Assembly (NCBI GenBank): GCA_020631575.1
Contig: JAHDGX010000002.1
Span: 1-51,179, forward strand
Reading direction: 5' to 3'
Length of the DNA: 51,179 nt
From: Candidatus Altimarinota bacterium
Lineage (GTDB): Bacteria; Patescibacteriota; Gracilibacteria; BD1-5; UBA6164
Position numbers and translations under genes: made by a program. Shown in pieces: positions 312-43,112 of the stretch. Within the stretch, counting starts at the first letter, position 1; each line of letters starts with the position of its first letter. The notes below the pieces were generated by a model. It searched no databases and was not told the origin of the DNA. It saw nothing but the letters and a program-made list of their open reading frames with translations.

Positions 312-3300
312 ATGAACACGGGTCCTGAAATAGACATGTCACGACTTGAGAATTCTGAAACTGAAGCAAGTATTAGAGACGAAACAAAAGCATTGCTCCA
401 GGAAGCAATGTCTATTGTTGAAATGTCCCAAGGAACTGAAAAAGAAGAGGATTTTAAAAGAGAGTATGCTGAACTTGCTGAAGAATATAATACTCGTTTT
501 GAAGATGGAATTATAGATTCAAGTGACCTTCATGCCCTCAAGCAAGAACTAGCAGAAGTTCAGGAATGAAGAGAAATATCGTTAGTCGAACATTACATGC
601 TTGATCATATAAAAGCAACGAATGAATGAATATTGAGTGGGGATGAAAGTGTATTAGATGAAAATCTTACATGGTATGCTGATGTATTTAGTTCAGATAC
701 TTTATTTAGCCCTGCAAAAATTTGAGCAAGAGCATATATTACTTCAGGTGAATGACTCAGTGATGATAGAATGGTACACTATCATGGTAGAATAACCGAA
801 CTCCAAAATAGTAATGAATCAAAGTATACAAAATTATTTCAACTTTCTCAAATCATCTATGATGTATCAATGGAATGAAACATGTGAGGTGGTATGATGG
901 AATCAGCTCATAATAACGCAACTCGAGAGCTCATTAAACAAGTAATTGGAAACTCTGAGCAAAATTTAGCCGTATGATATACTCAAGAAAGATGATATTA
1001 CACTGTTGAATGATCAAATATTGATACTTCAAATGACATGGAGGTAGGAACATACCTTTGCTCGCTCAATAAATCATGAAAACTTACAAAAGAAAACCTA
1101 CTTACACCTAATGGTCCATTTTCTCCGAATGATCTTTTTGATCTCATAAATAAATTTGAAAGCTGAGTATTTTGAGGTCCAGAAGTTCAAGGACTGTTTA
1201 TATGATATCTTGATGGTTTTGAAGATAACATGAATGCAATTGCAGAAAATTATCTGGCAAATGAACAAAACTGAGCTCACATTATAGCATTTTTAAATGC
1301 CCAAGAAACTTCTGGTAATGATCATCCTCTTGTTAATGAAAATAATATTTGAGATATATTTACTGCCACTGAGGATACTGATATCAGTTCCCTAGAAAAC
1401 GAACAATTACGACAAGTTCTTCTTCAAGAAAGAAGAATGATAGCAGCTCAAGCACTAATAAATGAGATTCTTTGAATATATGAGTGAGGTCCAGAGATTA
1501 GAAATGAACTTACAATGATTATCGAAGGTTCTGCGAGATGAGAACATAGTATGTTCGGTTTTACAAGGGTAAACGAAATAATATCAGAGTATAATGCAAG
1601 TGTATGAGACAATGAAAAACAATTTACTCTCATCGAGTGAGACCTTAAAGATACTATTGATAGAACTATATCATCATTTGATGAGGCTCATATGGCTGCA
1701 CAAAGCTATATGTCTACCCTCACGGAATTAGAAAATATAAAGGCCCAGGGAGAAGAGAAAGCTGAAGAACTTCAATCTTTACAAGCTGAACTCATACAGG
1801 CTGTAAACCAAGTTCCTATCGATCAAGCTAAAGTAGAAGAATTACAGGAACAAGTGCGAGCACTTAGGTTTGCTAGTTTTTATACAGAGATGCAAGCGTC
1901 CCAAGTAGAAGCAGAAGTTGAAGCTCAAAGAAGAAAATCTGAAGAAAGTACACATGAGGTTGAGAGAGTTGTGAGTGAATTTGACAGATACTCTACATTA
2001 TTTCGTAGAGAAAGTATAGATGAGGTATCAAAGTCACAAGAATCATTTAATTTATTAATCTCATCTGTACGTTCATCATCTGATATTACATATCTGTATA
2101 ATAATCATTCTGACTACTTTACCAATGTACATTTATATATGTTACATAAAGATGTTCGTTCTGATTTAGATGTAATTAGATGATTCCCTAATCTTCTAAG
2201 AAAAGAAGACTTACACTCAATAGACTCATGATTCTATCAAGAAAGTGAGCATATCTGATACCTCATTGAAGAAGCAGTTGAACATAGCCAATGAATGGCA
2301 AGCAAAATACAGTTTATACTTCTAAGGAATTACGAAGCAAATAGTGAAGATGTAGCTGCAAGTATTAGTCAAATACAATGGGTGCTTCAATACTCTAATT
2401 TAACAATGCAACAAAAGGAATATGTAAGAAATAATATCCCTACTGTGCTTATCAGGGCTGATGAAGAAAATGCACTTCAAATACCAGATAGACCAGAAAG
2501 AATTTCAACAATAAGTCTTGAAGAATTTAGTATACTATCTGTGAAATTAGAAGATTCTCAAACATTGACACTATCTGAGAGAAAGGACTTTGATATATAT
2601 ATTGGTAAGTACGGATTGCATCAAAATAAAAGCTCCGTTATAAATTTTATTTCTCAATGATATTTTGATTGAGCATCTGAAATACAGAGACTTGTAAATA
2701 GTGATTTTATTTCAAAACTAAGTGATAGGCATGAATCATCAGAATATTATCAAGTAGCTCTAAATAGTAACTTAGCAAACATAGTATACTTAAATCAAAG
2801 GTGTAGGAATGATTATTTAAGCCTACAAATAATCATTGAAAAATCCAACAATGAAGAAGAGCTAGTAAAATATTTACAATATACAGAAATTGGGAATGCT
2901 TGAGATTTTATACTGGTATTTAACTGACTAACAAGAAAACTATGATCAGAGGCAGCTGCAAGAAATGTAATCGGAAGTATGCCACGATTTTATAGTTCTA
3001 TCCAATCATTATATGAAAGTGAGTCAACCAACGAAGAAGATAAGCAAACGATGTGAAAGATACTCGAAATATATGCTCTTATAAAAGAGGGGTATATACT
3101 ATGAAGTGAAAATATGGAACGAGCATTAAACCAGTGACATCATGAGAGGCTCGTGATTAGATGATGAGAAAATATTCTATCAGAAATGCTATGAAGAAAT
3201 GTAAATGAGCGTGAAAAAAGTATAATAAAAGGTATATTAACCGTAGACGAGCCTAGTAGTCTAGACCTAAGAAACATCATAAGTATCTTCTGAGAAAGTG

Positions 3301-4433
3301 ATGAATGAGAAGCCCAAGCTAAAGAATTCTTAGAAAGAATAGCTAGTATGAGACTAGACGAAATATTTGCTGAAGTGGATAGGCTCCTTCTGGAGATACA
3401 ACCTGCTGAATCAAATACTGAAGAGTTTAAAAATTATTTTTCGAATGGAGCTCTAGACAGAGATGTATTTATAGCTTCATTAAATCAGTATATAAGTGAT
3501 ACTACTCTAGAAAAAACTGATAATGAAAATCAGAAAGAATATGAGTTAAGGGTCCGAAATGCATTTATAAGTCAATTTTGACTTTCTCAAGAACAAGCTA
3601 AAAATATTTCAAGAATATTAGAGTTAGAAAGTAATGCGGTTAACTGGAGTATACTTTTATCAAATAGTGAAACAGCAGCTCGTTGAGAAAGAGTTGATTA
3701 TCAAGCTGAACGTAGTAAGCGTCGAAGTAATGGAACTCTATATTTAACTCCATGAGAAAGAGGGTGAAGTGAAAGATTTAACTATGAAACCTGAGAATTA
3801 GAGCCAAACCCCAACTACCAACCACCTGAGGCTCCAGAAAACGATAACTCTCAAACTCCTCTACCAACAGAAAATTGATGAGAAACACCAATTTCAAATA
3901 ATTTTGAATATAGACTCTCATGAAGTAGAGATAATCCTGTAATTGAAAGCTGAGATAGTGTTATACCTATTTCTGAGCAGGAAGCTGAGCTTATCGAAAG
4001 TAATCCTGAAGCCGCAAAAAACATTATAAATATGTATGAATTCTTTAAAGATCTTAATTTACTTTGAGTCTGGGAATACAGAGAAGAGCTTGTCACAGCT
4101 GTATGAGAAGTGAGTATAAACCTAGAGGATGATTCTCTGAGAGAAGATGAACTACTACGTTTTGGGAGAAAAATACTTATTTTGGTACAAAATGTAGAAC
4201 AAGATCAAGCACAAACAGAGTGAAGAGAAGCAAATACAATAAATACTGAGGTATCAAGCCTTGATTCTCTTAATTACCAATTATCAAGATTTAGTGGATC
4301 AAGAGAACTTTGGTGAGACGATCGATCATTCAATACCTACTGAGAAGATAGGTTTGAATCTTGGATGAGAAGTTATTGAATCATTTGAGGTATTACATTT
4401 CACACCAATAGAGTCAGAGAAATGATGAAATAA
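312..4433 (+). CDS. giant acidic hypothetical protein, 1373 aa under code 25
   Basis: Track ORFs at 312, 1692, 2295 and 3348 share one phase. I walked the frame from ATG 312 to TAA 4431-4433 and saw only TGA interruptions, no TAA/TAG. Glu/Leu-rich with coiled-coil-like stretches (AEELQSLQAELIQAV). No signal peptide, TM segment or motif I recognise. Confidence 0.75.
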
Positions 4434-22348: not shown

Positions 22349-25300
22349 TTACCGTGCAACCTTTTGAGTTTCTAGATATTCTGATTTAAACTTCCCAACG
22401 AGTGGAGCAGTATCAGATAATAGTTTCGAACCAAAACTTACAATTGTACCTGGAGATAGTTGAGTTCATGTTTTCTCAATAAAGTATCTGTTATCAACAA
22501 GATTATCGATATCTCATGAGAGAGATCCATATACTACAAGTTGTTTTTCAGACTCGTCGGAGATAATATATCCTCCTCAAGCTGATGTAGGTATAGCAAT
22601 ATATGTTCCATCGAGTCTATCAACATCAGAAGCAATATTAATATTTCCTCCTTTCACTACAAATGCTACATTTCTATTTCCACTTACAATATCTTGCGTT
22701 AGATTCAGATCTCATCACTCTACGATATACGTTGTAGATTCCGTAAGTGTTGGGAGTGAACCAAGAGTGATGTTTTTCCCTTTAATAACAAATACATTTT
22801 TGAATCCATTATAGTTATCAAACTTATCATATCCACTTACAGTAGTGGTAGTAGGAGCCGTTTCAGTTGTAACTGAAGTTACATCATCTGTATACTCTGT
22901 TTTTTCATCTGCAACATCACTGATTACTACCATGTCTGTATTGTTCTCAGAATAACTTGATATTCATCCCGTACTTACTGAGGTCCCAACAAAGTTTTTG
23001 TTATCAGTATATCCTGAGATTCCTTGAGTAATCTTACTCACATCACCAGAAGTGTTAGATTTCACATATGAAGTTCCTCAACCAATTGTTACCACTGCAG
23101 GTTTTGCAACTCTCACATTAAGGTCTGCTGCAAAATATGCATTATATAGTTCCTCAATAGATCCATTATTATCAATATCATCTTTGATAGATGTAGTAAT
23201 TTTTGCTGATCCATAACTTTGTCCTGCTGGGATAGCGTTTTTATTTGAGATAAACTCTGGGTATACATACCTTGCAGTATCAGAAATAACTTGGTTATCA
23301 CTTACAGCTTTGTATACTCCATCACTTGTATCTTTTACTATGAAAAGTTTATTATATCCATAGAGCATTCTATTTTGCAAGTCAATACAAATTTCGTTTC
23401 CTGAAGCTTTATTTACAGAGTTATCACCATCAGTCTTTTTTACGCATAGTTTATCAAATGAATAATCATACTCTGATGTATTTTCGATGTATGGCCAAGC
23501 AGGTACTTTTGAAAGTACATTTTGATTGTGTCCAACTATGATGTCTTTCTCTGGTCCGAATTTGATTTCCCCACCTCTTGGAGTTGTAGAAATCTTAGGA
23601 TCAGGATTTCCAGATGAACTCCCCCCTGAACTTGAGCTCGTTGGCAATTTACATGTTGCACTACAAGCAAATCCTGGTTTACCATTGTCAGTTCCCATAT
23701 CACACTGTTCTCCTCTTTCTGGCTGCACAATACCATCACCACAAATAGGGTTTGTCTGGATTTGACATCTATCTTCTGTAATCCATTTATTGCTTCCTGA
23801 TGTTCCAATCTCATCTACCGAAAAAGTAGAGTCGACTGTTTTCTTTACGTAACACCTTGGGAATGGATCGCTACAAGAAAACTGCGCTGTTCTTGCCCCT
23901 GTAGTTTCTCTAATAAGAGCAGCACCAGTTTTTGGAGTAAGATATATATCGTCTCCTGTAGTTGCATCTGTTCCACATTTCATTGCGATTGATTGCACTC
24001 TATTATTTCCCCAACATGTATATGAGTTTCCAGGATTATCTATGATATCTGTACATCTCGCGGGTGATCAACTACTTGATGAAGATGATGAACTCGTTGG
24101 TGGAGTAACGTTAAGTGTTCTTTCACAGGTATTTGATGTAATAGTATCATTTACAAAACATTTAGCTGTATAAGTACCAATTGTACTCAGTGTTACTGTG
24201 CCAGTATTTTGGTTCAGAGTATTTACAATATTTCCTGCAGCATCTCTTACCTCAATTTTGTACGTACTTACATTAGTACCAGTACAAGTAAGTGTAGAAG
24301 TGAGAGTGCTTACGCTACTTGTTGGTGAAGCTGTAAGAGTGTTACATACAGCTACTACACCATTCTCAATGGTAATTGTTTCAATATCATGATCATCTTC
24401 ATCTCATCCGTCGTTACAACCTGCTGTAAGATCATTATCAACAAGGTTTGTTGTTTCACCATTTCCTCCTCTTACTCCATTTCCATTTGTATTATCTGGA
24501 TCACTATCACAGTCATCTCAGTCATCTCTGCTAATCTCAGCAAAGTTTGAAATACTTGCTGGGGCATTATCATCGATAGTAAATGTTATATCTAGATCAA
24601 CTGGCACTCCATTTGCTGGAAGGCTTGCTATAGTTCTCACTGCTGTAGAGCCTGATTGAGTCCAATTAGAATCATTAAGCGTAAGACCTGTAGGAATATA
24701 ATCTGTAATCTCTATGTTAGCTGCATCTATAGTACCTTGATTTACTACTCTTACTGTAAATGTTACGCTATCTCCTGTATTGAATGGTCCAGTAGATTTC
24801 AAAGTTTTTCTCAGAGCAAGATCATAAGCTGGTGTAATAACAGTAATTGTTTCAATATCATGATCATCTTCATCTCATCCGTCGTTACAACCTGCTGTAA
24901 GATCATTATCAACAAGGTTTGTTGTTTCACCATTTCCTCCTCTTACTCCATTTCCATTTGTATTATCTGGATCACTATCACAGTCATCTCAGTCATCTCT
25001 GCTAATCTCAGCAAAGTTTGAAATACTTGCTGGGGCATTATCATCGATAGTAAATGTTATATCTAGATCAACTGGCACTCCATTTGCTGGAAGGCTTGCT
25101 ATAGTTCTCACTGCTGTAGAGCCTGATTGAGTCCAATCAGAATCATTAAGCGTAAGACCTGTAGGAATATAATCTGTAATCTCAATATTAGAGGCATCTA
25201 TATTTCCTTGATTTACTACGGTTACTGTGAAAGTTACATCATCACCTTTAGTAAATGGTCATGCTGATTTGAGGGTCTTAATAAGTGCAAGATCATACAC

Positions 25301-26446
25301 CGGATCTGTTATAATAATTTCTTCAATATCATGGTCATCTTCATCTCCTCCATCAGTACAACCAGGCAATATTGCGTTATCAACAAGATTTGTTGTTTCA
25401 CCGTTTCACCCTCTGACTCCATTTCCATTTATATTGTCTGGATCACTATCACAATCATCCCCATCATCTCTGCTAATTTCAGCAAAATTCTGAATCACTC
25501 AAGTTGCGTCTGAATCAATAGTAAATGTAATAGGTAAACTTGTAGAAGAATCAGCAGCTAGAAATGGTATTACTCTAGTTGCTTTGTCTCACGATTGAAC
25601 CCATCAGCCATCAATAAGAGTAAGTCCATTTGGGATATAGTCTGTAATCTCTATATTATTCGCAGGAACATTTCATTGGTTTACAACGGTTATTGAGAAA
25701 GTAATATTTTCACCTGCTATAAATGGAGCCGCAGAATTTTGAGCCAAGGTTTTAAATAATGCAAGATCATATCTACTTTCAACACCACAAGTACTACTAC
25801 ATCCGTCACCTCCAACCGAATTACCATCATCACATGTTTCACCTTGATCCGTTTCTAATATCCCATCACCACAATATCGTAGCTCAATATTAAAACACTC
25901 ATTTTCATGAATCTCATAATCTTCAACTTTATAGTGTGGGTAAGTCTTTGTACTATGTGACCAAGCTCATGAATTGAAATTGTATTGGGTATAATTTTTC
26001 ACTCTAGTATTGGAACCATTTTGAGTAATTTTACCATGTTTAATGTTATACACAAACTGTAAATTTCTTTTTGAATTGTCTGTCGGTTTATGGAAAAAAC
26101 ACTGGGCACCAAATGCTACTACCCTAGTGTTATTTCCAGGGGCAACTTCGCTTTTTCTTTGCCAAGCATCAGAAGTTGTACATCATGAAACAAGGCTTGC
26201 ATCAGATCTCCAAAAAGATATCTTTGAAGTAGTAAGAGCTATATATCTATCTTCATCACTCCACATATCATCTATAAGATACCTATCAATTGTTTGTCAA
26301 TTTATATAGTATGATTTCTCTCTTAGTGCTCATGTACACTGGGCATCTCATAGCTTAGAAGATATTTCTTCTACAATTGCTGCCTGAGAGACAGAGGGGA
26401 TAAAAAATATACTTACTAGTATACTAAAGAGTACTATTCTTCTCAT
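22349..26446 (-). CDS. giant secreted repeat protein / putative adhesin, 1365 aa
   Basis: Track fragments ending at 22933, 23998 and 24802, plus the ATG at 26444-26446, share one phase. Signal peptide: [22 protein letters not shown]. There are two Myxococcus-type Cys-rich repeats ([29 protein letters not shown] and [21 protein letters not shown]...CSATC). Three 157-aa DUF11-like repeats follow (YDLAL.KT...VTFTV.VVNQG...[13 protein letters not shown]), each ending in an acidic [12 protein letters not shown]...DEDDHD module. The stop is TAA at 22349-22351. Confidence 0.85.
24380..25792 (-). repeat. 3 x 471-bp in-frame tandem repeat inside the adhesin gene
   Basis: The anchor tcaatatcat recurs at 24381, 24852 and 25323, a period of 471 nt (157 codons). 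Copies 1 and 2 are identical for about 286 nt (24381-24666 versus 24852-25137) and then diverge. Copy 3 is clearly diverged. Confidence 0.9.
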
Positions 26447-26639: not shown

Positions 26640-27776
26640 TTAAATGTATTTTTTAAACATTTCTCACCACCATGATAGAATCATTCACGTAATGTCCTCT
26701 TCATCTTGTCATCGAAACATCATACTTCAGCCAAGACAGTTTATCTCGAGAAATCGGTATTCCCCATTCGGCAATTCTACAAACTCTATGACTCATACTT
26801 CTATATTATTAGCTTTGAGTATATAATTTGCTGTTTCATTCATCTTTTTGGTTACTCCTTTTTTGTCATGAACACTCCAGGATACTTTCATATTCCTTCA
26901 TGTCGTCATAGTAGCCATTTTAGACATTTCGTCTTTAGTATTATGATTTTTTTTCTTTTTTACAGAATGTAGGTCATAAGAATTACTTTCAAACGTATAA
27001 TAGAGACGGGTCTCTTCTTTTATGTCGTAAAAATCAACGAAGTATAAATCTGGGTCAAACTCAGATATTTTAGATATGTATTTTAGAAACATATATTCTA
27101 ACATCTGATCATCTCACACATACTTTTCAGTATCTACGAGAGTAATGTGCTTTCCATTATCTGTATGGCTAGATTTTTTTAGTAACATGAATTTCTCTCC
27201 CGTTACATCAAGCCATAACTTAAAAAGTTGCTGTATACTATAGGTATTTCTGCTATACATAAGTGGAAGCATAAAATTTCAAATTAACTCACTCCTTAAT
27301 TCATAGATATTTGTAATATGTGCTGTTTTTTCTTGTTTTAGGTTTTTTAAGTCCTTGTTTGGATATATAAGCCTAGGAAAATTCTCATTAATTACTGAAA
27401 CCTTATCCCATAGTACCCAAAAGGGATTTGTGAAAGAGTTTCTACTCGTACAAAAGTAGGTGTTTTTCTCCGAAATCTTAATCCACTGTTTATCAAAAAG
27501 CCATAAGTCTTCATTTAAGATAACCATGTTATTTTTATACACCCAATTAATTTTATTTGGTGGTATATCATAATCTTCCCAAACCTTTTTTATAAACATC
27601 CAAGCCTCCAAAATCAGACTATTATAGGTCGTATTCTCAGTCCGAACATCGACCCTATAATACTTGTCTTTTATGAGGTCATTGATATCTCATTTATTTT
27701 GAATATCGCTTATACTATCCATAAAGAACATGTAGTCTTTTTGTGATATTGCAGACAGGATGTAATAAAATTTCAT
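26640..27776 (-). CDS. ATP-grasp-like protein, 378 aa
   Basis: Track fragments ending at 27611 and 27104 share one phase, extended to ATG 27774-27776 and TAA 26640-26642. The C-terminal half reads EKFMLLKKSSHTDNGKHITLV...VIEFVELPNGEYRFLEINCLG[G]SMMF, which resembles the ATP-grasp fold (ExN Mg-binding motif). The Trp/Tyr-rich N-terminal half is unrecognised. Confidence 0.6.
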
Positions 27777-27807: not shown

Positions 27808-30800
27808 CTATTCCTCTCCATCATCTGGATCTGAAGGGGTTTCTTCTGATCATGTTCCAACCTCTTCTGATCCCGTACCTTCTGAACCTGTATCGTTAGG
27901 ATCTGTTTCTGTTCCAGTTCCTTCTGTCCCAGTTCCTTCCGTTCCAGTTCCTTCCGTTCCAGTTCCTTCCGTTCCAGTTCCTTCTGTCCCAGTTCCTTCC
28001 GTTCCAGTTCCTTCCGTTCCAGTTCCTTCCGTTCCAGTTCCTTCTGTCCCAGTTCCTTCACTTCCGGTTGAGTCGTTTTCCGATCCAGTTCATGCTGGCT
28101 CTGGCTCTGGAAGAGTTGTAATATCAGGATTTTTAACATCCGTTACGAGGTCACTCGATGTGTCATGAAACTGTGAAGTACAGAGTGCTCCAAGTACACC
28201 ACATGGAAGACCGTTTCTAAGGAAGTTATATCCTTCAGCTAATATTGGTGGAGCTCAGTTGAGTAATACAACTTTTTCTGATGGTCCACATCTAATAAGT
28301 CCTTGATCGTCTGCCATTCTAAGACCTCACTCAGTGTTTGTCGTAACAACTCCAAGATATCTATATGAGCTAAGTGTAAGAGCTTGTTGCCCTAGGTCTG
28401 AATTCATTCTCTCTTCAGCAGTAGCAAATTCTTGCATATCACTCACTTCTCCTGTCGTGGCATTATATATAGCGATTGTATATTTCCCTGTTTCTGGACT
28501 AATTCCTCACATAATAAATGTATTTTCTGACCTGTCTCATGTTTCTGCATGTTTTAGACCAAAAGAGATATCATCCATTGCCAAAAAGCTTGCTTCATTT
28601 TCACTCATAATTTCAGCATATTTATCTGGGTTTTCTCTTCTCACCTCATCCATAGCTCCTGAGAGCGTTTTAGCAGAAATATCTACTTCGGAATCAGTTG
28701 CAGCTTCAGCTTGAGCATCGTGATATGCAGTATAGTCAACAACACCCTGATTATCAGTATAATCAGAAATATCTGCAAGAGAATCTTTATACTCTCTGAG
28801 TTCTGTATACCATGATTCTTCCGTAAGACCTCCTGTTTGAGAATTTATATCGTAAATCCTATCAATAAGAGACCTACTTGCCTCAAGACTCATATTTCCT
28901 GACATGATTTCTCCCGAAAGTCATTCTCTATTTGCTCCTGAAGCAGAAAGTTCAAACCATCTTGATGTTACTGTCTCACTTCCTGTTAGTCTTGTTCCTT
29001 GATATACAGCCTCCGATGTTGATGAGCCATCAAAACTTACTAGTGCTCCCGTGTGGTCTGCAGTAAAACGCTCAGTGGTAATTGTTTGATAATCATTCAC
29101 AAAAGTTCTGTGAATATCTTTATGTATTCTTGGTCTTCCTCTAAGCCCATTATTAATCTCCCCTCTTACACCTGCTTGATCCACAACATCAGCATCAGGA
29201 TATCAAACTGATACACCAAGTATAGCTCCTAGGGCATTCATACCTGTATCCAATCCCCCCCTTACATTTGCGAGCTTAATAAGTTCTCCTATCTCAGCTG
29301 CTTTAGCAATATATGATGCATGGATAGTAGTTATTAGGTTGACCGTATTTGAATTTATGTCCAATTGTTCACCTGGTTGATCAGCAAATATATCACTACT
29401 CATTTTAATTACTGATATGAGCATATCTCCTGTAACTTGTGTAGATTCTAAATGTGATCCAGTATCACCAAAGTATGATAGTGCTTCTCTTAACTCTAGA
29501 ACTTGGGCTGCGTTCATGTTTCTCATTGATTCAATAAGTTCTCTCACTCATTGAGTGTCAGCTTCTATCATCTCTACAAGTTCTGTGTTTGCTCCACCAT
29601 TTGTAAGTTCATTTATATAAGCATCCAGTTCAGATTTCTGTGCAGCTTCGAGAGCTGCTTGAGCTTGACTTATCGCTTGTTGGTTTTGGTCTGCGGCATC
29701 TGTAGCAGCTACTGCTTCAGCTGTCTGTGCATTTACAATTCATCTTGCTTCTAAAACTGCTGTATCTGCAGCTTCATCATTTGTATTTGCTGTATCTTGT
29801 GCAGTAATAGCCAAATCAAGAGCTGTCTGAGCATCTGCTGCTGCTTTTCTTGCCGTATCTACTGCTGCTTGAGCTTGAGCTACTGCTGTATCTGCAGCTT
29901 CATCATTTGTATTTGCTGTATCTTGTGCAGTAATAGCCAAATCAAGAGCTGTCTGAGCATCTGCTGCTGCTTTTCTTGCCGTATCTACTGCTGCTTGAGC
30001 TTGAGCTACTGCTGTATCTGCAGCTTCATCATTTGTATTTGCTGTATCTTGTGCAGTAATAGCCAAATCAAGAGCTGTCTGAGCTGTAGATGCTCAAGAT
30101 TCTGAAGTTTTAAGAGCCACATATGCCTCAGCATGAGCAACTAAATCAACTGCAACACTCCCGTCAGAGTTTAATTTTCAAGTTACATAGTTTATAAGAT
30201 CTTGATTCGAGTCAAAATTTAATGCATCTAGATCAATAGCAGCATCTACTGTATTTCCCCAATTTGCTCATGAATAATTGATGGCTAATTTTCAATTTGA
30301 ACGTATGAATAATGGGTCAGATGCAACAATATTCCATGAACCAATTTGATCAGAAATCGCTTGCAAAAGTGCCTGTCTATTTCTGGCAGTTACAAGTGAG
30401 GCTTCAGGATCAGATAAATCTGACAAATAGTCATCAGAGTATCCAAATGCATCAAAAGCTGCTTGTGCTGTTGATTCGTTCATTCTTGCTTGAGAAGCAA
30501 TGGTTCTTGCTTGAAGAAGCTGCGTATTCGCTGAATCAAGAGCTTCTTGAGCCTGTGTAGCTTGAGTTGTTGCAAAAGTTAATGCTGCTTCTCGTACTGC
30601 AAATCTCTCATCGGCTGCTCCATCAACAGATTCCGCTCTTGCAAGTTCTGCATTTGCTGAATCAAGAGCTTCTTGAGCCTGTGTAGCTTGAGTTGTTGCA
30701 AAAGTTAATGCTGCTTCTCGTACTGCAAATCTCTCATCGGCTGCTCCATCAACAGATTCCGCTCTTGCAAGTTCTGCATTTGCTGAATCAAGAGCTTCTT

Positions 30801-31668
30801 GAGTTTCAGTCGCTCTTTTAGTAGCCGTATCTAGATCTCTTACAGCTTGTCCTGCCTCAAACGTTTCTCTCGCAGCTGCAACTCTTAGTGATTCATCTGA
30901 TCATTCTACAGCTTCTAACTTAGCTGCCGTATCATTCAAAGCACCTTGAGCTTCAGCAGTTTGAGCTGCAAGAGCTTCTGCTGCTTCGCTTTGTTTGTAT
31001 TCGTTGAATGCACTCGTTGAGCTTGATCCAATGGAACCTCTCGTTCCATTAGTATTATATCATAGGGCTGTAAGAGCGAGTTGAACAGCTACTCTCTCAT
31101 CTAAACTGAGAGCTTTTACCTCATCTATAGTGGCATATCCTGAAAGAAGTTCTTTTGCCTGCGATACTTCGAGTTCTCTTGCCTCTCTAGCTGCTTGAGC
31201 TTCAGCTATTTTATCTTTTAATACTGAGTTAGTCATTTGGATTAGGAGAGAGATTCTTCCTTGGTCAATTACACCTCCGTCATAATCACTCATTATTTCT
31301 TTGAGAACTCTTTTTGTACCATTTCAGATTCTACCATCTACCGTAATAGTTGATTTATCAGAAGCTTTCAAAAAGAGATTCATGATGAATTGAACAGTTT
31401 TTTGCTCTTTCATTGTTGGATTGTCTTTAGCGCTATCTGGAGTAACATCTCCAAGTTCAGCAGCAATTTCTCCAGCAATAGAAAGCTCTCACTCCATTTT
31501 AGCTAGAATAGCTTCCTGAGCTTCGGGAATACTGCTAAGAGCCTCAATGTCTGACATACTGATTTCTTTATCAGCAATTGCAGTATCTACAGCAGGAGTA
31601 TCCATTCCTTGGTAGTTCGCTACGGTAAGCATAAACAGTGTTCTATAGTTTCGTAGTAGTGTAAACAT
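27808..31668 (-). CDS. giant Ala-rich coiled-coil protein with PG-binding-like motif and (EGTGT)n tail, 1286 aa
   Basis: Six track fragments (31293, 30483, 30066, 29547, 29184, 28905) share one phase. The first ATG is at 31666-31668 and the stop is TAG at 27808-27810. The N-terminal TVDGRI[G]NGTKRVLKEI resembles the PG_binding DGxxGxxTxxAV motif. It has two families of 42-aa repeats, a globular region of about 450 aa with no motif I recognise, and a C-terminal GTEGTGTEGTGT tract. Confidence 0.8.
27905..28072 (-). repeat. 15-nt (5-codon) tandem repeat encoding (EGTGT)n with a 60-nt higher-order unit
   Basis: The unit gttccagttccttcc alternates with the gtcccagttccttct variant at every fourth unit. 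Only the Gly/Thr phase is continuous with the upstream 3.7-kb ORF. Confidence 0.9.
29757..30083 (-). repeat. 126-nt (42-codon) tandem repeat, about 2.6 copies
   Basis: The anchor gctgtatctgca recurs at 29759, 29885 and 30011. The repeat encodes AQTALDLAITAQDTANTNDEAADTAVAQAQAAVDTARKAAAD. Confidence 0.9.
30531..30803 (-). repeat. second 126-nt (42-codon) tandem repeat, about 2.2 copies
   Basis: The anchor ctgaatcaagagcttcttgag recurs at 30531, 30657 and 30783. The repeat encodes EALDSANAELARAESVDGAADERFAVREAALTFATTQATQAQ. Confidence 0.9.
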
Positions 31669-31803
31669 AATATATGTTTTATAAAGTAATGTATTTGTGT
31701 TTGCGAAACAATTTACCTATTTATACTACCATACTTAAAAACAAAGATGCAAAAATAATAACTTGACGATAAATATATTTTAAGTTAGTAAAAGTAAACT
31801 ATC

Positions 31804-31837
31804 AAAAAACCTCTTTCATCACCGAAAGAGGTTTTTT
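31804..31837 (-). terminator. intrinsic terminator after the LPETG protein gene
   Basis: 13-bp stem: aaaaacctctttc pairs with gaaagaggttttt, with a 6-nt loop and flanking T/A runs. Confidence 0.65.
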
Positions 31838-31851
31838 ATATCAATATATTA

Positions 31852-32535
31852 TTATCTATTTCTAAATTTTAGAAATCCGAATCCTAGCATAAGAGCTACA
31901 AATGCAAGAAGTAAATGTTCAGCTCCGGTTTCTGGAAGTCTTGGAGGTTGTGGTACTGATGGTGGAACTTCTCCTGCTCCTGAAGTGTATAGTACACACT
32001 CTCTATGTTGTAGCGTATCAGTAGATGGAGCTCCATCTGCTTCAATGTTATGTACTGCGATATCATATACTATCATCCCAACGTTTCCTCCGGCAGCAAC
32101 TGGGTTATTTGTGAGTTGGTAGGCACTTCCTACTGTAGATTCAATCCATTTTACACTACTACCTGCAGAAAGGACGTTTCAAAGTGACTCATCACTATAT
32201 AAGGCATCTAGATCTGAAGTGTATGTCCAAAAATCTACACTATCGCTTGCTGTAACTTCTGTCCATGAAGCTCCTCCGAGTGATACAATTCTTGGCATTT
32301 CTTGTTCTTCTTTGAATAATACCTGATCTGTTGTTCCATCATTATTCCAGATATCATCAAGAAGTCCTTTATTATCTCCTTGAGATACAGCTCCTCAAGT
32401 AAAACATTGATCACAACTATTTGCAGCGTAAACAGAGTCAGCACTACATGTTACTTCTTCATACGCAGCGTATGTGCTTGTTGTCATATAAGCAAGCATA
32501 ATCCCTGCTGCTATGATTTTTGAAAATGATTTCAT
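31852..32535 (-). CDS. LPXTG-type sortase-anchored surface protein, 227 aa
   Basis: Signal peptide: MKSFSKIIAAGIMLAYMTTSTYA. The C-terminus is PPRLPETGAEHLLLAFVALMLGFGFLKFRNR, i.e. LPETG, a hydrophobic segment and a basic tail. Confidence 0.8.
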
Positions 32536-34465: not shown

Positions 34466-36526
34466 TTATTGCCAAAATCACTCACACCCTTCTCTAGAAT
34501 TTGAAAATGGTCAATTAAGCCCAATAAATCCTGTCGTTATTGGTGTGTCATTCACAACACCAGAAGAAATGTCATTTCACCATGACGTAATGCTTCCATC
34601 TGGTTTTAATGCATGGTAACTTCATTTCGCAGAATAAATATTAATATATCCTGTATCAGTCGGTTCTCAAAGTCCTCCCATTGTATCACTTCACCAAGAT
34701 GCAATACTTCCATCTGCTTTCATTGCTGCGAATCAATGTTCTTGGGCATAAAACTTAACATATCAGTTATCAGTTGGCTCTCAGTCAGCCTGAGTTCACC
34801 ATGATGAAATAGAACCATCAGCTTTTACTGCCATCATTCCTCAATACGTAGAAAGTGCTTTTACATACCCTCCATCTGTAGGAGCATCATCTCGTAATGT
34901 AGCATTTGCTGAATATATCCATAGGGTTCCATCTGCTCGAATTCCAATAAATCAGAAAAAACCTCATATAAGATCTACGAATGTATCTGTTGGAAACTCA
35001 TCTCAGTAATAATACAGCTGTCACCATATATGAATAGTTCCATCATCTCTTAGAGCTCAAAAGGTATTCCCCGTACCTACTACCTTAGTAAATCATGATC
35101 CATATGAGGTAACGAAATTTCCATTTGGATCTAATATTCTTCCTCCATAAGTCGTGTTTCCCCATACATGAATACTCCCATCAGATTTTAAGGCTCAAAA
35201 GGCTCATCTAAAATTTGAAAATATTTCTACATATCAACTATCCGTAGGAGTGTTCAAATTCCCCCATCATGTATCTCACCACGACACAACTCTACCATCA
35301 GAATTAAGAGCCGTAAAGGCTCTTGCTGTTGCTACTACAGAAGTATAGCCACTATCTGTAGGTCCTCATACTCATCATCTTGCTGGGTCTCACCAGGTAG
35401 TAATAGATCCATCTGACTTCAGAGCTGCAAACGCTCACTGTGTTCATGAAACAGTAATATAACCATTATCTGTTGGGGCTCCTGTGACCTCATTATCCCC
35501 ATCTGATCACCATACTGTCATGGATCCATCTGGCTTAAGAGCAACAAAGTTTGCATATATTGTAAAAAGTTGAACATACCCGTTATCGCTAGGGGCTCCT
35601 ACTCCTCCATAAGTATCACTTCCCCATGATTCTATACTTCCATCTGTTTTTAACCCTGCTAGGGCTCTACTATTTCCATATGCATTATTTGCTGCAGATT
35701 CTATTGTATAATACGCATTTGAATCACCACAACTATACTGACCTATTGTTAAAGGTAGACTTGGTAGTGTAGGTCAATTATTTTGTATCCCTCATGGACA
35801 TCTCCCATCCTTATTTACATCGAAACACTGAAAAGCGTTATCTACCACTCTCCATCATTTTCATTTTCTCACTATAAGATCTCATAACTCAGAAAATGTA
35901 GCTCAAGTTCCCGTAACGTAATCTTCTCATGATAAATAAGAGGAGAGAACATAAGTATTTCCTATATCTGTAAGCTCAAGAGTATTTGAAGTAAACGCTA
36001 AATCTTCAAGTGGTAGATTTGTAGCTTGCTGGGTCATAATACCTAAAGATGTCCCAAATGTCCGAGGATACCTATCTTGATTATCTGAATGTACTGAAGG
36101 AAGCAGAGCTAGGCTACTCATTTCTTCTTCCATGAATGCCATAAACTGAAAGGTTTTTTTATTAGATCATAAAAAATAACTATAGTACGTATCATCTTTC
36201 GGGTCCTTAGTATTTTCATCCATTCATATAGTTTCTAGTACATCTTTTCCTATTTTTCCCTGAAATCATACGATTACTCAACTTGAAGTGATAGTAATAC
36301 TGTTATCTGGGAGAGGAAGTTTCTTTGAAGTTGCATATTGTTGAAAGGTTTCAACTGCCTTAGTGAGAGTTGCTATTCTTTTTGTATCCCTCGCTCACAC
36401 AAGATATCAGGTATAAGAAACAAAACCAATTGTTGAGATAATTCCAACAATTGTGATAACAACGATAAGCTCTACAAGTGTAAAAGCTCATTTTTTAGAA
36501 CCGTGAAAACGAAGAATATTATGCAT
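34466..36526 (-). CDS. type IV prepilin-like N-terminus fused to about 10 RCC1-like beta-propeller repeats, 686 aa
   Basis: The N-terminus MHNILRFHGSKK[G]AFTLVELIVVITIVGIIS is a class III (prepilin) signal. The C-terminal 450 aa carry about 10 repeats of the form ALK.DGSI..WG...GG.....P.D.GY. The start, track fragment 36142 and stop TAA 34466-34468 are all in phase. Confidence 0.8.
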
Positions 36527-41549: not shown

Positions 41550-41963
41550 TTATCAGCCTATGGAGAACATAACTTCTATAACGATTCTCACAATTCAAGA
41601 AGCTAATAAAAGTCCTAAAAACCCTAGCATCGACCACTTTACAATATCTTTTCATTTTTTAATTTTTTCATCTTCTCATACTGATATAGTCATCATGAGA
41701 GCACCATACACTATCGCTCATACTGCAAGAAGCCCCAGAAGCATAGAGAGTTGATTTGTCCAATATACCACTTTATTTTTTACCCCTCACTCTATAAGAC
41801 CATCTCAAGGATTCACAAGTGTAGAGTCTCATAAGCAGCCATCAAGTTCATAACCAATATCTCATCCATTATATTCACAATCTGCATGAATATGAGGACT
41901 GAAAATACTCAAAATACTTACTAAGACAGTAAGACTTACAAGAAGTGAAAATATTTTTTTCAT
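41550..41963 (-). CDS. VirB2/TrbC-like small membrane protein (pilin-like paralog A), 137 aa
   Basis: Walked codon by codon. It has a signal peptide (MKKIFSLLVSLTVLVSILSIFSPHIHA), then TM1 (LSMLLGLLAVGAIVYGALMM), a charged loop (SVGEDEKIKKGKD) and TM2 (MLGFLGLLLASGIV). Confidence 0.7.
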
Positions 41964-41971
41964 GATAAAAT

Positions 41972-42355
41972 TTATAATATATTAATTCCTGCAATAAATC
42001 GTACAAGAGCCCAAGCTGCAGCTACTGCAAATATCCCAATCGCTGCATAAATAAAACTGTTAAATGCTTTTTTGAGTTCTTCTGGATTTCAGCGAGCCAT
42101 AAGAAGTCTTCATCAGATGTATATGAACATACCAATAGCAAGAAGTGCCATAAGATTAAATATACTATCTTTTATAAATTCTAATATTACGTCGAGAAGT
42201 CTCTCTTCTGTTTCTCATGAAGTGATAACGCTCGTAGATCCAGCAGGAGTGATCTGACTTTTAAGGTCTTCTGATGATCTTGGGTCGAGGGCTTGAGTGA
42301 TGTTACTCAGGCTCATGTAGAGAGCTGTAATAGTTACGAAAATACATGCTTTCAT
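41972..42355 (-). CDS. VirB2/TrbC-like small membrane protein (paralog B), 127 aa
   Basis: Walked codon by codon. It has a signal peptide, then TM1 (LMALLAIGMFIYI), a charged loop (ARGNPEELKKAFN) and TM2 (AAIGIFAVAAAWALV). Its start codon overlaps the paralog C stop (TAATG). Confidence 0.7.
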
Positions 42356-42705
42356 TATATTCTAAAATTATTAAGTATTCCTATAATTGACCAAGCCGTA
42401 ACAGAGAGAAACACTCATACAAGTGCCCAAGTTATGATAGTCTTTGCTTTTTTTGTTTTTTCCTCTTCCCCACTTGAGATGATGTACATAATTCATCCTA
42501 TCATCACGGCAATAACTGCAAGTACTGCAACATACTGGATCATGAGTCATATAATTCAACCAATAATCCCATAGATTCCATCTTCTCCTGTTCCAGAAGC
42601 AGCGTCACAGCCAGGAAGTCAAGCGCAGCCAATATCTGGAGCGGCTCCATAAGCTGTTGCCGATAAGAGAAAAAATATAGTAGCTATAATAATTTTCATA
42701 AACAT
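42355..42705 (-). CDS. VirB2/TrbC-like small membrane protein (paralog C), 116 aa
   Basis: Signal peptide: MFMKIIIATIFFLLSATAYGA. It then has TM1 (IIGLMIQYVAVLAVIAVMI), a charged loop (SSGEEEKTKKAKT) and TM2 (ALVGVFLSVTAWSII). Confidence 0.7.
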
Positions 42706-42707
42706 TC

Positions 42708-43112
42708 TTAGTAAAGTAAGAGAGCAAAGAGTCGAACAATAACTCAAGCAGAAAGCGCAACAGCAAGAGCAATAATACCAGACATAAATATAGATTTTCA
42801 CTTAGAGAGAAATTCATCCTGACCATGATAGATAATCATATATCCTGCACCTATCGTCATGATAAATACAGCAAAAGCACCAAATACAATTATTAGTTTC
42901 TCAAGTACTGTCAGGAGTACGTTTTGAACTGTTTCTCAGGCTCAGTCTCATATAAGACTCGTATTACCAGGAGTAAACGTTCCAACATGAATCTTAAAAG
43001 TCTCATCTTTTATATCTCCACTAGATTCCCCATCAGAGAATATATAAGGACTATAAAGTGATGAGATTAGTACAGTGAAAAAGAGAAATACACTCGAAAA
43101 TAAGCTTTTCAT
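42708..43112 (-). CDS. VirB2/TrbC-like small membrane protein (paralog D), 134 aa
   Basis: Walked codon by codon. Signal peptide: MKSLFSSVFLFFTVLISSLYS. It then has TM1 (LIIVFGAFAVFIMTIGAGYMI), a charged loop (HGQDEFLSKGKS) and TM2 (SGIIALAVALSAGVIV). The Leu-rich track ORF 42605-42826 is in a different phase. Confidence 0.7.

Follow-up and report, generated by a model that had tools for sequence, protein, structure and literature searches.

A candidate peptidoglycan-anchored coiled-coil surface fibril encoded by a Gracilibacteria genome that reads TGA as glycine

What is the role of a long, alanine-rich, repeat-bearing protein encoded by a small uncultured bacterium, and where in the cell would it act? 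The question is raised by a gene of 1286 codons on a contig of 51,179 nucleotides (nt) from Candidatus Altimarinota bacterium (JAHDGX010000002.1, assembly GCA_020631575.1), the whole of which is referred to here as the window. The Gracilibacteria and related lineages, which are uncultured, live as epibionts or predators and have tiny genomes; an elaborate and largely unannotated surface is believed to underlie their biology. For the protein studied here the evidence tips, if not decisively, towards a coiled-coil surface fibril bound to the wall of a monoderm Gracilibacteria cell that uses code 25, with a head that is as yet uncharacterised. The most economical reading of the sequence is that it represents a new, narrowly distributed variant of the peptidoglycan-anchored coiled-coil surface fibres.

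The gene itself is not in doubt. Translation of the plus strand between 27808 and 31668 meets many stops, and the coding frame runs from 31668 to 27808 on the minus strand, where 1286 sense codons, 18 of them TGA, precede the TAG stop with no intervening TAA or TAG. The initial annotation had proposed a single open reading frame (ORF) of this length and had warned that an overlooked TAA or TAG might split it; under genetic code 25 the frame is intact. In-frame TGA occurs in every long ORF of the window, and when the TGA columns of its GyrA were aligned to solved GyrA they matched Gly at 8 of 12 positions and Trp at none, so that the code in use is code 25 (TGA = Gly), which Gracilibacteria and Absconditabacteria share. 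The conserved Gly of the segment TVDGRIGNGTKRVL is indeed encoded by TGA, at codon 115, as had been noted from the sequence at the outset. The window is a stretch of ordinary chromosome on which lie gyrA, ribosomal protein genes, rpoA, infB, trpS, yidC, rnpA, pyrH and the gene for RNase J. The genome is that of a marine, alga-associated member of the Gracilibacteria, and the 1286-codon ORF is a real gene in it. Its product contains 15% Ala overall.

Re-translation of contigs under code 25 yielded full-length orthologues at five other loci on Gracilibacteria-type code-25 contigs. These encode proteins of 1227 amino acids (aa; L001, a Joint Genome Institute (JGI) metagenome contig that covers only this gene and the giant gene downstream of it), 966 aa (L002, from a Candidatus Gracilibacteria metagenome-assembled genome), 974 aa (L004/L005, from JGI 'BBAY' samples) and 1178 aa (L006, a further JGI metagenome contig). 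Wherever flanks are available (the window, L002, L004/L005 and L006) the gene order is the same, running yidC, a gene for an LPXTG protein of about 227 aa, the gene studied here, a DUF11/CLIPPER giant, an ICMT-like membrane protein gene and trpS; this is therefore a core gene that has been inherited vertically and lies between genes for secreted surface proteins. Relatives are otherwise few. A word-indexed search of 5.8 billion proteins returned one family fragment (P0001), and 15 proteins came out of an exhaustive HMMER search of 1.84 billion representatives. The database members of the family (P0002-P0024) are mostly pieces of 38-220 residues in which TGA was taken as a stop, or are full-length with Trp at the TGA sites, and the family has been missed by routine annotation because gene calling with code 4 or 11 on code-25 contigs yields such truncated or Trp-bearing versions. 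One distant homologue, P0011 (1068 aa; locus L003, 1410-4538), comes from a contig of 49% GC on which TGA is a stop. It shares the C-terminal core with three cysteines, has clear peptidoglycan-binding modules and a faintly similar start (MKILRNQ...), and has no Ala-rich stalk. The start called for P0011, 78 nt further upstream, would make the gene overlap the one before it and is probably an error. Two metagenome contig scans and one viral contig scan produced no more relatives, and tblastn against phage genomes found none. The protein thus belongs to a small, rare and conserved family that was previously undescribed.

Conservation within the family is strikingly uneven. The two long stalk segments, which contain few Gly and Pro residues, are 6-21% identical among orthologues and differ in length by more than 300 residues between species, whereas the leader is 85-90% and the C-terminal core 74-96% identical, as would be expected if a spacer separated two functional ends. 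The initial description of the protein as an Ala-rich coiled coil stands up well: Ala makes up 26-34% of the stalks, and their hydrophobicity shows a sharp period of 3.5 residues (power of 57 and 76 in the two stalks, as against 3.4 and 0.6 at 3.6 residues).

The three in-frame repeat families recognised at first reading (2.2 and 2.6 copies of two 42-residue units, and EGTGT units with a 60-nt higher-order period) were recovered in the same form by Tandem Repeats Finder, which counts about 10 EGTGT units. They had been taken to be independent of one another, and no similarity is detectable between the 42-residue units of arrays A and B. Each of these units spans exactly six heptads, so that duplication would extend the stalk while the heptad register is kept. 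Neither the 126-nt arrays nor (EGTGT)n is present in any orthologue from other species (L001, L002, L004/L005, L006), and by this comparison the arrays are recent and lineage-specific. Such a difference between species is distinct from variation in copy number between strains, which the initial annotation had thought likely. Public reads allow the arrays to be examined independently: three 'algae metagenome' runs contain 86-94% of the 31-mers of the gene, and one seawater run contains its most conserved part. Contigs assembled from the three algal runs end at each of the three arrays. One of them joins 30529 to 30656, which leaves array A one 126-nt unit shorter, and the contigs also carry at 29806-29821 a variant of unit B with four changes, mostly synonymous, in place of the window letters. 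Further differences between these contigs and the window, again mostly synonymous, lie at 30056, 30076 and 30746, within the 126-nt arrays or at their edges. The variant units suggest real, slightly diverged copies, which may have been made uniform in the window assembly. The repeats are real in kind; since the short-read contigs break at the arrays and show variant units, the copy numbers and the 100% identity between copies are attested by the window assembly alone.

These broken contigs, the missing unit and the variant units are also what might be expected if the gene were not genuine, that is, if it were an assembly artefact or pseudogene created by collapsed or expanded repeats. Contig depth within the arrays, however, is 2-5 times that of the flanks (2.2-3.7 times for array B), as expected for real repeats. 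The frame is intact, every array unit is a multiple of 3 nt and the 126-nt units are a multiple of seven codons, and intact orthologues occupy the same chromosomal locus on five other contigs. A variant of this explanation, in which the ORF is a prophage tail or tape-measure gene, fares no better given the lack of PHROG matches and of relatives in phage genomes or viral contigs. We consider all such explanations exceedingly unlikely.

The case for attachment to the wall is made by the N-terminal region (aa 21-235), which is 41-60% identical to that of the orthologues. The initial annotation described the TVDGRIGNGTKRVL segment as similar to a peptidoglycan-binding domain. Pfam gives no PG_binding_1 (PF01471) match there on the window protein, and in this respect the suggestion fell short; it gains ground from the L006 orthologue, in which PG_binding_1 is found at 36.3 bits, above the Pfam gathering cut-off of 23 bits, and aligns onto aa 89-134 of the window protein (BLASTP, E = 3e-7). 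The core signature of the family, D-G-x-x-G-x-x-T, is present at aa 111-118 as DGRIGNGT. Sub-threshold PG_binding_1 matches were obtained with all three N-domains scanned (window, L002 and L001; best E = 6.8e-5). P0011 likewise exceeds the cut-off, at 32.9 bits, and its second module matches endolysin wall-binding PHROGs. It is therefore supported, by transitive homology, that the window protein carries one or more divergent PG_binding_1 modules and is predicted to bind peptidoglycan.

How such a protein might reach the wall is less straightforward. The initial annotation saw no classical signal peptide, and no transmembrane segment or Sec-like hydrophobic core was found in the protein by a Kyte-Doolittle scan. 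The leader does possess a basic n-region (R6, R9), and T-V-A at residues 15-17, followed by N, fits the rule of small residues at -3/-1, as judged by eye and without a predictor. Synonymous changes among the orthologous leaders indicate selection on the leader peptide. In L006 the same n-region (MFTLxxNxR) is followed by a hydrophobic core of 12-13 residues and a plausible cleavage site between NSA and D. Because this homologous leader looks like a signal peptide, we read the window leader as a diverged, motif-bearing one; the initial question as to the export route is thus answered in part. The leader motif does not recur elsewhere in the approximately 130 kb of related sequence examined.

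Might the protein instead stay inside the cell, as a cytoskeletal, division or chromosome-organising coiled-coil scaffold whose wall-binding similarity is fortuitous? The window protein would suit such a role in being highly acidic (net charge -129) and in having no Sec-like hydrophobic core, and it shows a weak SMC-like coiled-coil match (E = 0.028). That match amounts to 12 bits against a cut-off of 567. Moreover, two family members have PG_binding_1 above its threshold and the domain can be aligned with the window sequence, the L006 leader resembles a signal peptide, and both conserved neighbours are secreted surface proteins; a cytoplasmic scaffold therefore seems to us very improbable. 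Beyond the sub-threshold PG_binding_1 match, searches of Pfam, NCBIfam, PHROGs and PDB with the window protein returned only matches to SMC and SipB, which are attributed to coiled-coil noise.

The C-terminal domain defines the family. Its identity among orthologues is 32-70% overall, and the last 75 residues are far better conserved, as given above. Between aa 1090 and 1163 the residues that are invariant across the family, P0011 included, comprise C1127, C1156, C1163, Q1122, D1120, R1117, R1126, E1131, Y1147 and N1148 among others. No His is invariant in the family, which argues against a classical Cys-His peptidase. The domain has no sequence match in Pfam, NCBIfam, PHROG or PDB, in line with the early impression of a globular region of about 450 residues (28150-29550) without a recognisable motif. 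That region turns out to be larger than first drawn, extending over aa 676-1165, to which the conserved insert at aa 426-520 is to be added. A C-terminal LPXTG with a hydrophobic segment and basic tail is absent, and the protein ends in an acidic tail that closes with DDGEE.

Invariant polar and Cys residues packed into 75 residues might instead mark a new-fold enzyme or toxin (invariant Cys, Asp, Glu and Arg), and the protein could then be a secreted or host-delivered effector directed at peptidoglycan, its modules docking on the host wall and its leader serving a dedicated export route. PG_binding_1 modules typically occur in wall hydrolases and endolysins, as the PHROG match of P0011 illustrates, and the effector explanation would also accommodate the lack of a classical signal peptide, the T4SS-pilin genes within the window and the epibiotic predation known from relatives of the lineage (PMC8080830). 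Against it, no hydrolase or toxin family or fold was matched in Pfam, NCBIfam, PHROG, PDB or Foldseek searches, and no His is invariant. No conserved immunity-like gene adjoins the locus, the gene is a single-copy syntenic core gene rather than a polymorphic cassette, and a coiled-coil spacer of 350 residues would be unusual for an enzyme. We regard an effector as unlikely, though the least so of the rival explanations.

Several observations weigh against the wall-bound fibril that we prefer. The PG_binding_1 match of the window N-domain, scanned alone, lies below the cut-off (17.9 bits, E = 0.0035, aa 190-220), and for the full-length protein the match weakens to E = 0.12. Profile-profile comparison of module 1 with module 2 was not significant, and hhalign of the N-domain with the N-terminal half of P0011 was suggestively collinear without reaching significance. 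An AlphaFold2 (AF2) model of the N-domain of an orthologue proxy was helical and of low confidence, with a predicted local distance difference test (pLDDT) score of 62.7 overall (62-77 in module 1 and 85-94 in module 2), and Foldseek returned no peptidoglycan-binding structure for it. The prediction of structure for the head, which the initial annotation had proposed, was carried out on the orthologous fragment P0001 (12 sequences); it gave a mixed alpha/beta model, again of low confidence (pLDDT 53.5). Foldseek of these proxy models, which represent orthologues and not the window protein, found nothing in PDB or BFVD at E < 0.01. The hydrophobic run of the window leader is only 8 residues long, with a best 12-residue Kyte-Doolittle mean of 0.9, as compared with uncharged runs of 15-20 residues and means of 2.0-3.1 in the signal peptides of 15 other proteins of the window. 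Finally, the leader of P0011 has no hydrophobic core at all, which leaves a place for a non-Sec route.

The data above establish the ORF, the genetic code, the repeats, the heptad periodicity, membership of the family, the synteny and how conservation is distributed, whereas where the protein sits, how it is exported, which way it points and what its head does are inferred. On this footing, a wall-bound fibril would most plausibly be built as follows. The protein would most likely be exported via Sec by means of its atypical leader, with the conserved motif and short hydrophobic core, and one or two divergent N-terminal PG_binding_1 modules would bind peptidoglycan non-covalently. A two-segment alpha-helical coiled-coil stalk would then project outward from the wall, with an estimated length, at 0.15 nm per residue, of about 50 nm for this protein and about 25 nm for the short orthologues; the 42-residue duplications would lengthen it without breaking the register. 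The far end would display the conserved head of about 490 residues with its Cys-containing core, followed by the flexible acidic tail. The head probably contacts a conserved partner, which may be an envelope protein, such as one of the two syntenic neighbours (LPXTG protein, DUF11 giant), or the surface of a host cell.

Parallels for such an arrangement exist in better-known bacteria. Streptococcal M and M-like proteins share with this protein a long, hypervariable alpha-helical heptad stalk whose length changes by in-frame tandem repeats, conserved ends, a signal peptide that bears a motif (YSIRK-G/S in M proteins, MFTLxRNxR in the putative one of this family) and genes that adjoin those of other wall-attached surface proteins. 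M proteins, however, are anchored covalently at the C-terminus through LPXTG and sortase, whereas the protein described here lacks both LPXTG and the YSIRK motif, carries its wall-binding modules at the N-terminus, where they would bind non-covalently, and ends in a conserved globular head without a fold match and then an acidic tail, so that the polarity is opposite. In its working it would resemble the Gram-positive coiled-coil fibrils, without belonging to their group. The D-G-x-x-G-x-x-T signature is shared with the PG_binding_1 modules of endolysins, autolysins and the Zn D-Ala-D-Ala carboxypeptidase; in contrast to those enzymes, the copies here fall below the Pfam cut-off and share their chain with a coiled coil and an unrecognised domain, with no recognisable hydrolase. 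PcsB and EnvC offer a similar extracytoplasmic layout, in which a long coiled coil precedes a conserved C-terminal domain that acts at peptidoglycan, but the present protein has no CHAP or LytM domain and no FtsEX context, its stalk is far more variable and its leader is atypical.

A closer setting is provided by the sister lineage Vampirococcus, in which electron microscopy revealed a fibrous coat of 20-100 nm that has been ascribed to large surface proteins, including DUF11 proteins (PMC8080830). Vampirococcus lugosii belongs to the same clade (code 25, monoderm, with an elaborate surface), and the gene described here adjoins a DUF11-repeat giant of the type proposed for the coat (PMC8080830). 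The family differs from the coat proteins of Absconditabacteria and Gracilibacteria in that it has not been described before, has no adhesion-type Pfam domain and has as its only recognisable module one that is predicted to bind peptidoglycan. We take the Vampirococcus coat as a compatible context for the proposed fibril and not as evidence for it (PMC8080830). What emerges is an unnamed, conserved and syntenic family of putative surface proteins, with a recognisable, putative wall anchor, a stalk of variable length and an uncharacterised head, which is a candidate for a fibrous coat like that of the sister lineage and may offer a handle for studying attachment. The case illustrates, too, the fragmentation of code-25 genes in public protein databases, by which such families are hidden from routine annotation.

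Table 1. Coordinates of the gene, its parts and its immediate surroundings in the window.
Feature	Coordinates	Strand	Remarks
Whole ORF	27808..31668	-	1286 codons, of which 18 are TGA, read as Gly (code 25); stop codon TAG at 27808-27810
Leader, aa 1-20, MFTLLRNYRTLFMLTVANYQ	31609..31668	-	85-90% identical in orthologues; basic n-region; 8-residue hydrophobic run; homologous to L006 leader
PG_binding_1-like module 1, aa 89-146	31231..31404	-	Divergent; includes TVDGRIGNGTKRVL, Gly115 = TGA; aligns to L006 PG_binding_1
PG_binding_1-like module 2, aa 186-235	30964..31113	-	Sub-threshold Pfam match, 17.9 bits, E = 0.0035
Coiled-coil stalk 1, aa 236-425	30394..30963	-	Ala 26%; strong heptad periodicity; 6-16% identical to orthologues
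Tandem array A	30526..30803	-	126 nt (42 aa = 6 heptads) x 2.2, 99% matches; within stalk 1
Small conserved non-coiled insert, aa 426-520	30109..30393	-	Common to L001 and L006; lacking in L002 and L004
Coiled-coil stalk 2, aa 521-675	29644..30108	-	Ala 34%; heptad periodicity
Tandem array B	29756..30084	-	126 nt (42 aa = 6 heptads) x 2.6, 100% matches; within stalk 2
Conserved C-terminal domain, aa 676-1165 (~490 residues)	28174..29643	-	Mixed alpha/beta; family-defining
Most conserved core, aa 1090-1165 (SSYRYLGVV, ADDQGLIRCG, GYNF, GLPCGVLGALC)	28174..28401	-	Invariant residues
Acidic Thr/Gly/Glu-rich disordered tail, aa 1166-1286	27811..28173	-	Net charge -30; not conserved
Tandem array C	27907..28059	-	15 nt (EGTGT) x 10.2; 60-nt higher-order period x 2.5; window-specific
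Conserved upstream block	31669..31772	-	Conserved in three loci (window, L001, L002); candidate promoter
Upstream syntenic partner, 227-aa secreted protein	31852..32535	-	C-terminal LPETG, hydrophobic segment, basic tail
378-aa gene	26640..27776	-	Window only; 31 nt downstream of the gene, no terminator between; absent from all orthologous loci
Downstream syntenic partner, 1365-aa secreted DUF11/CLIPPER-repeat giant	22349..26446	-	Synteny

The surroundings of the gene (Table 1) add some detail to this picture. The conserved block upstream contains a candidate promoter, made up of TTGCAT (31747-31752), an 18-nt spacer and TGgTAGTAT (-10 at 31723-31728), followed by a leader of about 50 nt; in the conserved untranslated segment 5' of the ATG the window has a 10-nt deletion. 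A hairpin with a T-run at 31804-31832 ends the upstream gene, whose 227-aa product scores just below the NCBIfam LPXTG cut-off (15.2 versus 15.9 bits) and is strictly syntenic wherever the upstream flank is available (L002, L004/L005, L006). In the downstream giant, a 471-nt tandem repeat (x 2.4, 89% matches, 24372-25494) duplicates a DUF11 module, so this neighbouring surface protein also expands by in-frame repeats.

Between the gene and the giant lies a gene for a 378-aa protein, which, like the (EGTGT)n tail, is restricted to this window among the loci compared. The last 60 residues show its only match, a weak one to the NCBIfam family MvdC of ATP-grasp peptide maturases (E = 6e-4; 19 bits, where the cut-off is 425); Pfam and PDB yielded no match. 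The 378-aa protein is possibly linked in function to its neighbour, and it is conceivable, if unsupported, that it modifies the Thr/Glu tail. Taken to its furthest extent, this line of thought leads to a new principle of envelope assembly in code-25 bacteria that belong to the Candidate Phyla Radiation, combining a dedicated leader signal, a three-cysteine attachment or host-binding module and enzymatic modification of the tail. The near-invariant MFTLxRNxR leader would then be a dedicated targeting signal, in a role like that of YSIRK-G/S or for a non-Sec route, and the C-terminal core with its three cysteines would be a new covalent or metal-dependent attachment module, or one for host binding. 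In this genome the ATP-grasp-like enzyme would post-translationally cross-link or extend the Thr/Glu tail with its (EGTGT)n array, as graspetide, RimK or TTLL enzymes do with their substrates, but on a surface protein. We attach very little credence to this combined scheme.

Other features of the window deserve brief mention. A large orphan ORF of 1373 aa on the plus strand (312-4433) contains 53 in-frame TGA codons and has no Pfam match and no signal peptide. Four small tandem genes on the minus strand (41550-43112) each encode a signal peptide and two hydrophobic segments; three of their products match Pfam T4SS_pilin (PF18895) above the cut-off and the fourth does so weakly. Also on the minus strand, at 34466-36526, is a type IV pilin-like protein of 686 aa, in which an N-terminal methylation motif is followed by RCC1-like repeats; its 43 in-frame TGA codons (6% of the total), many of them at the repeated Gly of a W-G motif, represent an extreme local use of the recoded codon.

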